NCBI RefSeq assembly: GCF_964204645.1
Contig: NC_134025.1
Location: 30,918,299-30,982,298, forward strand
Origin: Tubulanus polymorphus
Lineage: Eukaryota; Animalia; Nemertea
Length of the DNA: 64,000 nt
Reading direction: 5' to 3'
Below are positions 11,559 to 24,012 of the stretch, piece by piece. A program made the position numbers and the translations under genes. Within the stretch, counting starts at the first letter, position 1; each line of letters begins with the position of its first letter. The notes under the pieces are model-generated. The model made no database searches. It was not told the origin of the DNA and saw nothing but the letters and a program-made list of their open reading frames with translations.

Positions 11559-11724
11559 CTGTGACTGGTTGGTTTGATTATGAAATCAATAGAATCAATC
11601 AAAATCACCCGTATGCAAAGTTCGAAGAAACTTCTATTACTAAAAAAACTAAATTCAAAATTAATTTGTTTAATGTGAATTTGTTAAAACATTTCAATTA
11701 CATCAATTACTTATTGGATTGTAA

Positions 11725-11943
11725 TTATATCGATTTGATATCCATTTGTTTCTTCCCCTGTAGCAGCGTTTTCGCGGGTTTAACTGGTAGTTTTGCAAAT
11801 TTTGGATTATTTTTCCGCTTGAACGACGAAAAGTTGTTCCATGACCTCTTCACATCAGTAACTTCTTCATCATCGTCATCTATCTCTTCTGCCCAAACTC
11901 CAATCAATAACACGGTTACAACGAGACACCAGAAAACCTTCAT
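11725..11943 (-). CDS. Secreted prepropeptide copy B (72 aa), candidate antimicrobial or toxin peptide precursor
   Basis: MKVFWCLVVTVLLIGVWA | EEIDDDDEEVTDV-KR | SWNNFSSF-KR-KNNPKFAKLPVKPAKTLLQ-GKK-QMDIKSI. Signal, acidic pro-piece, dibasic sites, Lys-rich cargo and GKK. Confidence 0.85.
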   Translation of the reverse strand: MKVFWCLVVTVLLIGVWAEEIDDDDEEVTDVKRSWNNFSSFKRKNNPKFAKLPVKPAKTLLQGKKQMDIKSI

Positions 11944-13588
11944 CGCACCGCCTATTGGTGAAGAATAACGTTAAATACATTATTAACCGTACGTATATAA
12001 AAGGTTTGACACTAGAAATCACAAAATTTGAGTTCCGAAAGTAAAAATATTGGAATTAATCCAAATAGTCGCTGTTAGAATAATACAGCCATCATTAGGT
12101 ATACTTGAACCTGTCAGTCACCCAGCTGAAAACTTGTGGAACTTTGACTCATATTATTTCCAGGCAGGAATTTTTATTTGAACATAGATTTGCGTTTATA
12201 AATCTAGCAGATATTGTTACTGTTTCTACTTTAAGATCATCAAAACTCATATGAAGCCTTTATTGAATTCCTACCTTTCCTCTCCTGGATTTTCACACAA
12301 ATAAGAAGCTGAAATCTTCTGTGATTTTCTCTTCATGTCAGCTGTTTTTATACTTTTCCAGATATTGTTTATTTATGAGGAGATTAATCAAACTCGCAGT
12401 CGTTTTATTTGAGTTTAATTCCAGTTTGATGAATGTTAGTCATATTTTAGTGTTTTTGCAATAAATCCGACATTATAGTATTAGATGTTCATTTGAAGTC
12501 AATCTCTTATATAGATTTGCAGATGTTTTCAATTTCCCCCGAAAGATGAAGTTAATCATCCTCTGGCGGCTGTTGTCATAACACGTGTTTATATTATATA
12601 GTATATTTTAAATGAAATATTGAACCTAAATTCATTGCATGAACTGTTTCTGCTGAAATCGGCGCCAAGCTAGCCACTCGGGCACCTATGGATCCTAACA
12701 CCAGTTCGTTCGTCATCAGCAGCTTCCATCAGAACGTTCCTTTTACGCGACTCAAACTCCATTGGATTTTTGTGTGATAAATTATTGATATGAGAGGTTT
12801 TTTCTTGAGCTCTTTAAAATGGAGGTACTTTTTATTAAGACATTTGAAAAAAACTGCACCGTAAGAACTTTCTGCTAAAAGTATGTAACTTCCAGGCTCG
12901 GCGGAAATTGTTGACATGAACTGGAACCGAAATTTCCAAATATGTTGTCTTTCGATTGAAACAAAAAATTCTGTAAATTTCACTTATTATCCAAATTCAG
13001 CAGTCTATGACCTGGAGCATTGGTACGTGTTGCGGCACGTTCGAATCAAGAGGAAAGTTTCACCTTGGGTTCGATCGAACATGAGATAGGGTTAGGGTTA
13101 GCCAGCTGTCGTTTCCCAAACAACAAGTTGCATGGGAACCCGCACCTGAAGCCCCGGTATCAAAACAGAAAAAGAGAATTAAATCAGCGTTCATTAATTT
13201 CATCAAGCGATTAGATTCCTAAATTCATTGCATAAACTGGTAAATATTCGTCAACTGTTTTTCGACGGCCCGGGTAAAACCAGTTGAGTACCGGTAAAAT
13301 GTTAGCCTCTCGGGGGTTTAATCTCCTGAAACATGTCTCCTAACATCAGTCCGTTCATCATTAGAGTCAGCATTTTCAACCAAAACGTTTCTTTCGCGGT
13401 GGCTCGATGCTCTAAGTATTCTAAGTATCTGGTTCAGGCAGCTACACGGGGACCCGTGAGAGTTCAACATCAGAATTATCGCCTGCCCAAACCCCATCCA
13501 CCATTAACACGGCAATGAACAAACACAAAAACAATTTCCTTCGTTCCTATTTGAGGACATTGTGAAATAAGAAACGGCCCAACAAATA

Positions 13589-13890
13589 GCGTAGTTGACT
13601 CTCAGGCCGTGGCATGCGGCCCACCTCGTCGCGTAGTTGACTCTCAGACCGTGGCATGCGGCCCACCTCGTCGCGTAGTTGACTCTCAGACCGTGGCATG
13701 CGGCCCACCTCGTCGCGTAGTTGACTCTCAGACCGTGGCATGCGGCCCACCTCGTCGCGTAGTTGACTCTCAGACCGTGGCATGCGGCCCACCTCGTCGC
13801 GTAGTTGACTCTCAGACCGTGGCATGCGGCCCACCTCGTCGCGTAGTTGACTCTCAGACCGTGGCATGCGGCCCACCTCGTCGCGTAGTT
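13589..13890. repeat. 42-bp minisatellite, ~7 copies
   Basis: Unit GCGTAGTTGACTCTCAGACCGTGGCATGCGGCCCACCTCGTC. Explains the repetitive ORFs in several frames. Confidence 0.95.
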
Positions 13891-20508: not shown

Positions 20509-21606
20509 AGCGCCACCTATTGGTGACGAAACAACGTAATCGATAATATTTCAGTGAGGTCTCGCGCCTCAATCGGTCACAGCAGCAGAATACAGAAAAA
20601 CTGTTAAAAACTGAACTGTTATCACAACCAGTCTGTCTATCGTCAGTTTCAGCAGAATTTTATAATGTTTCCCTCAATCCGAATTCTCTACAATCTTTAT
20701 TAATGGAGACTTTTTTTGTTTCAGCTGAGAAGAAAAGTTGATCAATATTTTATTTCAATCAATGAAAAAGCCAATAATGTATTGCAATGAAATTAAATCG
20801 TTTTGTAGCTGTTAAAATAGATAGAATTGAACCTGTTAGTCACCAGCTGAAACGTTATGGTACTCATTAAAATCATTCCTCGTAAATCGCAGCATGAGAA
20901 TGATATTTCATTTCATCAGCAAATAACAGAGATTTGAGTTTATAAATCCAATATCAGATATTTCTGCTGTTTCTGCATTAACATCATCAAAACTCATATG
21001 AAGCCTTTATTCAATTCCTACCTTTTCTCTGCTGGATTTTCACACGAATAAGAAGCCGATGTCTTCTGTGATTTTCTCCTCCTATCAGCTATTCTTATGC
21101 AATTCCTGATAATGTTTATTTGAGGAGATTTATCTCGCATTGGTTTTATCAGAGTTTAACTCCAGTTTAATGAATGAATTTATCACATTCTAGTGTCTTT
21201 GCAATAAATCCGACATTATAGTATTAGAAATGTTCATTTGAAGTAAATCTCTTATATAGATTTGCAGATATTTTCAATTTTCCCCGAAGGATTAAGTTTA
21301 TCTTCATCTCGCAGCTGTTGTCACTACACGTCTTATTCTTATATTACATAATAGTTTATTTTCATGTGCGATGAAATATAGTGTTTTATTACGTGTCATG
21401 ACGAAAGAGTTCACTGAAGTTAGAGTTGTTTAAAGTTGATACCAATGTACATAACCGGGTCCAAATCTTTGTTCGTTCTATATAGAAAATGGTTACTCAG
21501 ATAAATTGAATTCAACGATTAGAAAAAAATTCAAACCAAACATTTTAAATTTTTAATGTGGATTTATCAAACATTTTGAGTTACATCCACTGACACAATC
21601 ACGTGT

Positions 21607-21798
21607 TTATGTTTTTTTTGCTGTCTTGTACCAATGCCGACAATATGGCCACCACCAGCAGCGGTGGCGGCGCTGTTGATGTTGTCTTGCCATCCTAACA
21701 AGATCACCTGATTCATCACCAGAATCATCATCAATCTCTTCAGCCCAAACTCCAATCAATAACACGGCAACAACAACGAGACACCAGAAAACCTTCAT
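21607..21798 (-). CDS. Secreted prepropeptide copy I (63 aa), Trp/Arg-rich with 2 Cys
   Basis: MKVFWCLVVVAVLLIGVWA | EEIDDDSGDESGDLV-R | MARQHQQ-RR-HRCWWWPYCRHWYKTAKKT*. Confidence 0.87.
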   Translation of the reverse strand: MKVFWCLVVVAVLLIGVWAEEIDDDSGDESGDLVRMARQHQQRRHRCWWWPYCRHWYKTAKKT

Positions 21799-24012
21799 AG
21801 CGCCACCTATTGGTGATGAAACAACGTAATCAATAATATTTCAGTGAGGTCTCGCGCCTCGATCGGTCACAGCAGCAGAAACAGAATAACAAGCCTTACC
21901 TGTTAAAAACTGAGCTGTTATCACAACTAGTCTGTATTGTATCAGTTTCAGCGGAAATTTATACTGTTTCCCTTAATCTTACTCAATTCTCCGCAATCTT
22001 TATTAATGCAGAATTTATGGAACGACGAAATTCCTTGGATGAATTTGGTTTTCGGTTTATGAAAAAAATGATAAAATGACAGTGAATCATTAGTTTGTGA
22101 ATGCAGTACTTAGAAACCCAATTGAAAGATGATTTAATTTCAAATCTTAAGATCTGTTGTGAAAATTTCCATTATGATTTTCCTGTCAATTCTTACTTGA
22201 AATATGTTTTCAATTCTACACGTGTTGTTTTTCTGTTTCAGCCGGGATTTTTTTAGAAGAAAAGTAGATCAAAATTGTATTTCAATGAAACAAGGATTGT
22301 TATTAGCAGCAATCTGTTACTTAGGGCACAAAAACTATGTTCAAACTTGATTCCGTAAGTGTAAAGCAGTCATCAGGAACTCTTAATGATATGGTAGTCA
22401 CTACACATGACCGACCACCACGCTGACCAGACATATATAGTTATAACAAAGCACTGTCCCAGTAAACAGGCCTACATATGCGCACACTGTATATACCGTA
22501 GCATTTTGTTGTTACGTTTTTCCATTTTAATGTTTTCAGATTTCAGTAAAACCGCGCCTTACTCGAACAAGGTCAACTCGGACTTAAAGACAAACTCGGA
22601 GAGAAATGAAATAGTTTTGCTACGTGTGCCTCTCTCTGATTTTCCCGGCTCCAGTTTGTCCGAGGTTTACTGGGTTTACTGTACGAATAGATAATTGTTT
22701 CACTCTTGATGCTCGCTCCGTCAAAATGATAATCGCGTATTCACAATGATAGAATGATATTTCTTATGTCAAATAAGTTTGGTTTGAAATTGAGTTATTT
22801 TGTCGTACACAACAATGAGCAATATGATGACAGTTACATCAACCATGCCATCTCCCGGCTATCTCTCTCCCTCTCTACTGCTGCTGCTGATGTTGACACT
22901 GCCTCCAAGATGGCGTCTGCTGATTTAATAGATGAATAATTAATGTATGTGAGTATCCGCGTGAGAGAGAGAGAGAGAGAGAACTGGTACCGATCAATAA
23001 CATCAGTATCCGTTACTCGCCGGTACTGCTGTATGTGTGTATATATCCGTATCTACATTATCATGGATGGATTTAAATAAAAATAAGAAACCTTATTTGG
23101 ACATTCTTACGAAAAAAGCCATTTCTGAGTGATTTCATCAGTAGTGAATGGTTTTAACTGCCGTTTCTGGCGAGAATTTGACTCGTGTTGTTGACACAGA
23201 AGCAACAGTCGATGCGCTGGAAAAGAGAGAGAGTGAGACTGAGGGAGAGCGAGGGAAATGCGGCAGCTATGGAATGAGTTATCATCACTGAATTTATTAT
23301 AGAATATAGAAAAACAGATTAAACCGGTAAGTAAACTATAATTTCATATATATTATGATAACGCCATATTTTGATATATGATAACACCATATTTTTATAT
23401 ATGTTAACACCATATTTTGATATACCATTACACCATATTTTGCTGTATCATAACACCATATTTTGATATATCAAAATGCCATATTTTGATATATCATACA
23501 ACCATATTTTGATATATTATTTTTAAAAAAAAACCTTTTTTGATATATCATAAAAACCATATTTTGATATAACCCTGATTCGGCAGTTCTTATATTTTGT
23601 AACCATTTTAAAGATCAAGTTAATCTTTTAGTTAACTTATTTCATAAATGATTTAATATTTCATACAGACAATCATACAATAGGCTGGACACGTGGACTG
23701 CCGTGAGTGACATGAAATATCATTTGGTTAATAACTTACAGCCGTCATCAATCAGGTGTCTTAGTCATGAAAGGTCAATGACATCCCTCAACATCATCAA
23801 GAGCCGAGTGATGATTTAAGATACCACTTTGGTTCTAGAAATCTATCAAGTCTGATGAACTTGACTATTTAATTCCCGAGTTTACTGATAGTGGGATATA
23901 CACCACAATACACAATTATTCAAAATCAGTTTATTTCGAAATATTTCGACGACTGGTAAAAATGTATTGTGTAAAATGTGATGATCGCACTGTAGAAGTA
24001 TTGTAAACGTAC

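Follow-up and report, generated by a model that had tools for sequence, protein, structure and literature searches.

Conserved flanks and unalignable mature-peptide segments in a tandem array of putative secreted-peptide genes from the nemertean Tubulanus polymorphus

How can neighboring paralogues keep almost the same promoters, introns and 3' untranslated regions (UTRs) when the peptides they encode share no alignable sequence? The question is raised by an array in the genome of Tubulanus polymorphus, within a stretch of 64,000 nucleotides (assembly GCF_964204645.1, contig NC_134025.1, positions 30,918,299 to 30,982,298) that we call the window and whose numbering we use throughout. The array comprises nine paralogous two-exon genes (A to I) within 12 kb, all on the minus strand between 10266 and 22010. 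In each unit, a noncoding exon 1 is followed by a 5'UTR intron and by a single coding exon that specifies a signal segment, an acidic propiece, a Lys-Arg (KR) site and a cationic segment, here termed the cargo. The origin of families that combine a conserved signal with a hypervariable cargo is an old question, for which selection, gene conversion, segment switching and focal mutation have all been proposed. The array is a compact system in which to address it: introns are short, and the whole precursor lies in one exon. With signal and cargo undivided by an intron, exon shuffling is no explanation for the pattern and no confounder.

The explanation we favor, with a probability of roughly 0.55, is that the genes are old tandem duplicates shaped by birth-and-death evolution. 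Their cargos would have been held only to an open and cationic character, and eroded by indels and shifted stop codons; their flanks would have been kept by purifying selection, probably together with patching by short conversion or recombination tracts. This mode is likely that already known as "conserved prepro, hypervariable mature peptide" evolution in host-defense or toxin-like families.

Identity along the closest pairs

An earlier examination of the sequence (the original prediction) singled out three pairs with near-identical flanks and unrelated cargos: B and D, F and G, and H and I. In these pairs the promoter, intron and signal, together with the 3'UTR in B/D and H/I, are 77-100% identical. 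For B and D, the promoter and exon 1 agree at 257 of 286 positions (90%), the intron at 250 of 296 aligned columns (84.5%, with 129 gap columns), the signal at 56 of 57 (98%), the propiece at 33 of 42 (79%), and the QGKK tail plus 3'UTR at 128 of 155 (83%). The cargo cores (84 versus 147 nt) reach a local alignment score of only 11, which was matched by 4 of 300 shuffles. The detail predicted at the end of this pair is exact: both terminate in CAG GGR AAG AAA, and the next codon is TAA in D and CAA in B, which extends B by QMDIKSI.

The H/I pair likewise bears out its description. Identity is 89% in the promoter, 95% in the intron (80/84), 98-100% in the signal (59/60 outside a 68-nt insert in H), 67% in the propiece and 89% in the 3'UTR (148/166), and the cargo score of 10 was matched by 23 of 300 shuffles. 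For F/G the prediction of nearly identical upstream DNA and unrelated cargos was correct, with 96% identity in the promoter and exon 1 (174/182), 77% in the intron, 88% in the signal, 79% in the propiece, and a cargo score of 10 that 48 of 300 shuffles matched. The common DNA of this pair is on the 5' side only, however, as its 3'UTRs cannot be aligned (113/300 shuffles match the score).

The predicted excess of noncoding over cargo conservation is confirmed. Cargo scores lie below those of every equal-length window tested in the intron, UTR or promoter of the same pair: none of 40 windows in the B intron or 43 in the D intron scored 11 or less, and the minimum was 34 among 22 windows of the H 3'UTR and 32 among 43 windows upstream of F. 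The original prediction had also considered that cargo DNA might align as well as the flanks, with protein differences reducing to a simple frameshift. We looked for this and rejected it: already at the DNA level, the cargos cannot be aligned.

Contrary to what had been supposed, divergence reaches beyond the interval from KR to the stop codon. In all three pairs identity declines from signal to propiece to cargo, so that the drop begins at the end of the signal peptide and not at KR. The stop codon is no boundary either: in E the variable stretch extends 62 nt into the 3'UTR.

Overall, 24 of 28 cargo pairs are at chance similarity, and short islands of homology remain in some cargos. F and I share 13/13 nt and E and I 10/10 nt around an R-(H)-R-C motif, E and G are alike over about the first 25 nt of the cargo, D and H share an 11-mer, and B and D have a weak island. 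H and I have R-C-x5-C in common at the protein level only. The cargos contain zero to two cysteines at variable positions.

The cargo is nevertheless not junk, as its frames stay open and its products are net positive. In eight of nine units the cargo frame runs open for 28 codons or more, compared with 18.8% of shuffles, and net charge is positive in all nine cargos (+1 to +9). Sharing of composition alone would fit membrane-active host-defense peptides.

Units, transcripts and alleles

Features of the array are listed below. Going upstream from each ATG, the 5' module begins with an AG acceptor at a distance of 8-9 nt and continues through the intron to its GT donor, then to a noncoding exon of about 45 nt and a TATA element. 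There are two types of module. In type 1 (B and D) the intron is long; in type 2 (E, F, G, H and I) it is short, at 75-217 nt.

10266-10415, minus strand: unit A, degenerate, with AAG at the start codon and a cargo frame of 16 codons; its signal and propiece DNA is 75-82% identical to that of other units
11725-11943, minus strand: unit B coding exon, 72 amino acids (aa), with a Lys-rich cargo and QGKK followed by the read-on described above
11952-12274, minus strand: B 5'UTR intron, type 1, long, predicted from a GGTAGGA donor and an AG acceptor homologous to the RNA-confirmed H junction
12275-12600, minus strand: B type-1 noncoding exon 1 (5' end inferred) and promoter block with TATA elements
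14036-14251, minus strand: unit C, pseudogene-like, with TAG at the K codon of KR; the cargo frame beyond it is open for 34 codons
14537-14803, minus strand: unit D coding exon, 88 aa, with a Pro-rich, nearly neutral cargo and QQGKK before the stop
14812-15215, minus strand: D 5'UTR intron
15216-15621, minus strand: D type-1 exon 1 and promoter block
16264-16473, minus strand: unit E coding exon, 69 aa, with an Arg/Pro-rich cargo, two Cys, and GR before the stop
16482-16698, minus strand: E 5'UTR intron
16699-16762, minus strand: E type-2 exon 1 and TATA element
17394-17651, minus strand: unit F coding exon, 85 aa, with a somewhat degraded signal (SS; E in the hydrophobic core) and a 3' region unlike all others
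17660-17734, minus strand: F intron
17735-17910, minus strand: F type-2 exon 1 and promoter block, the block being 96% identical to that of G
18206-18439, minus strand: unit G coding exon, 77 aa, with a Pro/Trp-rich cargo, internal DNA repeats, and GRK before the stop
18448-18528, minus strand: G intron
18529-18705, minus strand: G type-2 exon 1 and promoter block
20198-20516, minus strand: unit H exon 2, with the family ATG at 20508, a 68-nt insert at 20425-20492, and the stop lost in the window allele (TAT)
20517-21021, minus strand: H 5'UTR intron (spliced contig, GT..AG), holding a remnant of a type-2 promoter and exon 1 at 20602-20700 whose donor is deleted
21022-21061, minus strand: H type-1 exon 1, present in the spliced contig, together with a type-1 promoter block (to 21421) that is the third copy of the B/D block
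21607-21798, minus strand: unit I coding exon, 63 aa, with VR for KR and an Arg/Trp-rich cargo with a C-x5-C loop
21807-21899, minus strand: I intron
21900-22000, minus strand: I type-2 exon 1 and promoter
16083-16205 (E), 11602-11724 (B), 14395-14536 (D), about 18161-18205 (G), 20139-20253 (H), 21482-21606 (I) and around 14017 (C), minus strand: shared 3'UTR block with poly(A) signal

A signal-coding 17-mer with up to three mismatches matches nine times (0.37 expected), eight of them inside the array; the ninth, at 7339 on the plus strand, has no signal-like open reading frame (ORF). A protein-motif scan of the window returned exactly nine ORFs, every one of them in the array. The N-terminal segment (19-20 aa) is a predicted signal peptide, to judge by its MK start, hydrophobic core and V-W-A. 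It is followed by a propiece of 14-18 aa, the dibasic site and a cargo of 16-53 aa. The dibasic site, a putative cleavage site of the precursors, is KR in B, D, E, F, G and H, VR in I and VK in A, and its K codon has become a stop in C. B, D, E and G end in Gly plus basic residues, which in prohormone processing is a C-terminal amidation signal. The cluster includes pseudogenes, with disabling changes in A, C and the window allele of H, and B, D, E, G and I look intact. In E the frame beyond the TGA stays open for 28 further codons and reaches the shared 3' block.

An inverted repeat of 7-10 bp lies just upstream of the poly(A) signal in D (14480-14515), E (16175-16203), G (18175-18205) and also H, with arm sequences that vary by subfamily. 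It may be due to chance or may be a weak conserved hairpin; a conserved 3'UTR hairpin was considered as a candidate and rejected, because folding z-scores in the five units scored are only -0.8 to -1.7, and we claim no structure.

Transcripts and alleles were assessed with sequencing contigs from one study, comprising four runs and two samples, with no run recorded as RNA. In a 346-nt contig from run X4, position 21022 is joined to 20516, with 505 nt skipped (GT..AG, minus strand), and the contig continues through H to 20218. Run X4 therefore holds spliced RNA, and the 5'UTR intron is real. The same contig shows that H is transcribed from a type-1 promoter and that its own type-2 module is now intronic. 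The type-1 module in question, at 20780-21421 upstream of H, is 84-88% identical to the modules of B and D. The spliced H contig also shows that the only intron sits in the 5'UTR, the whole ORF being uninterrupted in a single exon. Other X4 contigs lie over the coding exons of B (11711-11938), D (14558-14796, free of differences from the window), F and G, although expression levels are not derivable from contigs. A joint between 16202 and 18366 that suggested an extra paralogue was rejected as a cross-mapping H transcript.

An X4 contig over unit C (window 13861-14266) joins 13943 to 14030, with 86 nt skipped and GT..AG on the plus strand, antisense to C. A contig of run X2, which derives from the same sample as X4, runs continuously across 13943-14030. 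An antisense spliced transcript may thus overlie the C pseudogene.

The 68-nt insert in H lies in the signal-coding region with GGTG at both sides, and breaks the frame of the family ATG after five codons. It brings an in-frame ATG (20434) that opens a 78-aa ORF with a signal-like start, and it is retained in the spliced H transcript. We take it to resemble the 5' two-thirds of an intron-containing tRNA-Ile(UAU) gene, although neither ARAGORN nor Rfam calls it; searches with Rfam gave no match at gathering thresholds in the whole window, and none at E-values up to 1 for the insert. The 68 nt recur in an X2 contig (393 nt, depth 50) with different genomic surroundings, and the sequence next to them there looks like a tRNA T-arm.

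A second H allele is found in runs X1 and X4 (20248-20386). It has a TAA stop where the window reads TAT, and a 5-nt insertion through which its 3'UTR comes to resemble that of E. Where signal and propiece meet it carries four substitutions, three of them matching the family consensus. This leaves decay of the window allele of H, or conversion of the other one, as explanations. Contigs from two samples cross the cargos of five units (B, D, G, H and I) and match the window throughout those cargos. A contig over E and F has 14 differences, of which 13 are listed and lie outside the cargo and one is unlisted. Differences from the window do occur in the propiece and in intergenic DNA. Invariant cargos in these contigs argue against an ongoing focal mutator, although numbers are small.

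How the pattern may have arisen

The age of the duplicates can be judged from the prepro region. Summed over 15 pairs, synonymous differences per site are 0.30 (0.295) in the signal and 0.37 in the propiece, and non-synonymous differences are 0.076 and 0.19, giving a signal pN/pS (the ratio of non-synonymous to synonymous differences per site) of 0.26. These values imply that most of the paralogues are old, that the signal is under purifying selection, and that the propiece is relaxed. In B-D, none of 12.2 synonymous sites has changed in the signal, and 2.5 of 7.3 have changed in the propiece.

One could instead take the flanks at face value, as showing a truly young age, and attribute the cargo to a focal mutator (error-prone repair) or to extreme positive selection. 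Focal mutators or strong diversifying selection have reportedly been proposed for conopeptides and frog peptides. Such a model would account for cargos that have diverged beyond every equal-length intron and UTR window of their pair, for the H/I propiece, in which 15 of 45 sites are changed compared with 4 of 84 in the adjoining intron, and for the coding differences between alleles, which fall mostly in the propiece (seven sites across E, F, G, H and I). We consider it improbable, however: synonymous divergence in the prepro region has already reached 0.3-0.4 in most pairs, the contigs that span cargos lack cargo differences while flanks differ, and one young age does not explain flank identity as patchy as that of F/G (96% in the promoter, 77% in the intron and 88% in the signal).

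That patchiness likely reflects short conversion or unequal-recombination tracts superimposed on purifying selection. In a Sawyer-type runs test, concordant sites are significantly clustered in two of ten pairs: F-G in the promoter (17795-17838, P 0.007) and H-I in a different segment, the intron (20528-20597, P 0.003). The tree of the 5' module supports (F,G) and (H,I) well. H itself is composed of two promoter modules: a type-2 module that has decayed and, upstream of it, a B/D-type module, which is the one used by its mRNA. The runs test and the H promoter thus lend some substance to the predicted homogenization of flanks by gene conversion, but the approximately unbiased (AU) test does not establish a conflict between 5' and 3' trees.

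Selection without any conversion is a simpler proposal, in which flanks resemble each other through purifying selection, and cargo and propiece drift neutrally with many indels. The signal pN/pS is as this proposal would have it, propiece divergence is similar to that of the intron in B/D (79% versus 84.5% identity) and F/G (79% versus 77%), and the AU tests do not demonstrate mosaic ancestry. Yet in H-I the intron, at 95%, is better conserved than either the promoter (89%) or the propiece (67%), and the near-identical tract occupies different segments in F-G and H-I. Moreover, the cargo scores below all intron windows and so has gone beyond presumably neutral DNA, and its frames are open far more often than by chance. 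We regard this proposal as distinctly unlikely.

The original prediction also offered cassette-like replacement, in which a cargo is swapped whole. The source could be family members elsewhere, through homologous exchange with the conserved prepro and 3'UTR as anchors, or foreign-DNA break repair, comparable to the "accelerated segment switch in exons" (ASSET). Several observations agree with replacement. The B/D transition is sharp, with similarity returning exactly at CAG GGR AAG AAA; the limits of the variable stretch and of the coding part do not coincide, as the 62 nt of 3'UTR in E show; F shares a 13-nt cargo island with I and a promoter with G; and the tRNA-gene-like 68-nt piece captured in H, with GGTG at both sides, indicates that fill-in insertion occurs at the locus. 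On the other hand, a search of the 64-kb window found no donor for any of the nine cargos, the longest match elsewhere in it being 17 nt (E 0.058), and no cargo is common to any two of the nine genes, which frequent exchange would yield. Islands at the start (E/G, E/F/I) and end (B/D) of the cargo also resemble decayed homology, not replacement. On balance, we think replacement unlikely. A related scheme is the least probable that we consider: a lineage-restricted family with germline cassette turnover, whose cargo is renewed by DNA break-and-fill between signal/propiece and 3'UTR anchors within one exon. It may have left traces in the GGTG-flanked tRNA-gene fragment, the H allele with the 5-nt indel, the shifted stops and the expanded repeats of G.

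We therefore return to old duplicates as the favored explanation. Tandem duplication would have occurred long ago and been followed by birth and death of genes. Selection on the cargo may have acted only on an open, positively charged, Trp/Pro/Arg/Lys-rich character, and under selection for composition only, indels, local slippage, and gain or loss of stops would erase alignment. Purifying selection would keep the signal, promoter and 3'UTR, and in the closest pairs the flanks may have been refreshed by short gene-conversion or unequal-recombination tracts that could not cross the unalignable cargo. Cleavage of the precursors at KR, in many cases with amidation at the C-terminal Gly plus basic residues, would release peptides that would most likely act as secreted antimicrobial-type effectors. 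Some mutational steps can be seen directly, namely TAA/CAA in D and B, TAT/TAA and the 5-nt indel between H alleles, the nonsense codon in C, the lost ATG in A, and repeats in the G cargo (16 repeated 6-mers, 2.2 expected). The originally offered option of diversification through indels and frameshifts is partly right: gain or loss of stops is seen directly, in B versus D and in two H alleles, but divergence is not restricted to the interval from KR to the stop.

Several points weigh against this explanation. Cationic character is not uniform, as the D cargo is nearly neutral (+1). Repeat enrichment, which bears on the slippage step, occurs in just two of nine cargos, G and, weakly, I. The ratio of non-synonymous to synonymous substitution rates (dN/dS) is uncomputable for the cargo because no cargo aligns. 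The runs test is also compatible with local functional constraint, so conversion is not proven. In the tree of the 3' block, E and H are joined weakly (47/61) and H+I is not rejected (p-AU 0.38), and on the 5' tree E+H is rejected only at p 0.036, so that incongruence between the two is not established. Finally, the RNA evidence is limited to contigs of the single run X4, whose library type is unrecorded.

Known systems and surroundings of the array

The original prediction called conservation of noncoding over mature coding DNA the reverse of the usual pattern. This is true, but the arrangement is textbook for venom and host-defense peptide genes (PMC7285919, PMC3862624, PMC5577615, PMC4558851). 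In venom phospholipase A2 (PLA2) genes, UTRs and introns have changed less than the mature coding DNA, the signal peptide excepted, and ASSET, or segment switch, is described for three-finger toxins (PMC7285919). Non-synonymous (Dn) and synonymous (Ds) divergence of conotoxins double or triple from signal to pro to mature region (PMC3862624). Frog antimicrobial peptide (AMP) precursors have a conserved signal, KR and unalignable mature peptides, and gene conversion has been suggested for the homogeneity of their signals (PMC13128954). Mussel MgCRP-I (PMC4558851) and myticalins (PMC5577615) present the same conserved/hypervariable pattern, and Hydra AMP families are characterized by bipartite charge and lineage restriction (PMC10945409).

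Among these systems, myticalins are closest to the array in design. Like the array, myticalins and modiocalins form a lineage-restricted multigene family in which the short first exon is noncoding, an intron splits the 5'UTR immediately ahead of the ATG, and one exon encodes both a conserved signal and a hypervariable cationic region rich in Pro and Arg; further common features are an anionic region, the KR site, pseudogenes, and amidation signals of Gly plus basic residues (PMC5577615). The order of parts differs, being signal, anionic, KR and cationic in the array, and signal, cationic, KR and anionic extension in myticalins. The precursor occupies one coding exon here and two as reported for myticalins, the signal consensus differs, and there is no sequence similarity (0 matches in the profile search).

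Conotoxins share stepwise divergence, conservation of noncoding parts within a superfamily, and indels concentrated in the mature part (PMC3862624). However, their signal, pro and mature regions are described on three exons with introns of more than 3 kb, whereas the array has one coding exon and an intron only in the 5'UTR, and its cargos lack conserved cysteine frameworks. Anuran skin AMPs resemble the array in having a signal, acidic propiece, KR and variable mature part, clustered genes, and a signal under purifying selection (PMC13128954). According to that report, frog genes place the signal on a separate exon (the "export exon" idea), in contrast to the array, which comes from an invertebrate, and the sequences are unrelated. 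Snake PLA2 and three-finger toxins are alike in that UTRs and introns outlast the mature region and in-exon segments turn unrelated (PMC7285919), but these toxins are described as folded, cysteine-rich, alignable proteins of 60-130 aa, whereas the array cargos are short, mostly linear and unalignable. Hydra arminins are also taxonomically restricted clusters at one locus, with a signal followed by negative and positive parts (PMC10945409); they have no sequence similarity to the array.

Homologue searches recovered no recorded relative. A hidden Markov model (HMM) profile of seven prepro regions had 0 matches among 1.84e9 representative proteins, and a word-based protein search with G gave two candidates, neither of which was scored. 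Pfam searches with seven proteins produced two sub-threshold hits only, Actin for D (14.5 bits) and Conotoxin PF02950 for I (17 bits, E 0.012, compared with a cut-off of 25.1 bits), and the other six had no Conotoxin match. The best ESM Atlas score for I was at chance level (0.81), three signal-peptide strings were not found in the full text of papers, and a metagenome pattern scan yielded 0 loci. Apparently, then, the array is an unrecorded family, although its evolutionary pattern is already well known. The products may be unrecorded Trp/Pro/Arg-rich secreted peptides of a little-studied animal, and are candidates for antimicrobial testing.

The window is eukaryotic in character, with micro- and minisatellites, spliced genes and 34-45% GC. 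Its conserved exons suggest a spiralian-like animal and not a cnidarian, and do not by themselves single out a phylum. Tandem repeats within the array region include 77 copies of a 14-nt unit between G and H (18930-20012), seven copies of a 42-nt unit between B and C (13589-13894), and a GT/GTGC microsatellite adjoining the B 3'UTR (11465-11558). Such intergenic repeats could promote unequal exchange in the array. A spacer repeat of about 125 nt occurs at 11055-11178 and 12841-12968, in copies that are 81% identical and have very high contig depth, and a spacer stretch of about 35 nt (17209-17243) has many differing flanks among contigs. An inverted-repeat element at 11290-11410, resembling a miniature inverted-repeat transposable element, has further copies in the window at 49879-49962 and 62598-62719, and the B-C spacer holds a telomere-like run of about 2.5 TTAGGG units (13089-13105).

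Outside the array, the sole ARAGORN call in the window is tRNA-Val(TAC) on the plus strand (48400-48473). A single-exon gene on the plus strand (46638-47528) codes for a LicD-family protein (Pfam PF04991 on its own database entry), whose best foreign match is nemertean, at 34%. The last exon of proteasome subunit Rpt2 is on the minus strand (53087-53476), with 91-94% identity to mollusc proteins and about 90% to annelid, amphioxus and flatworm proteins.

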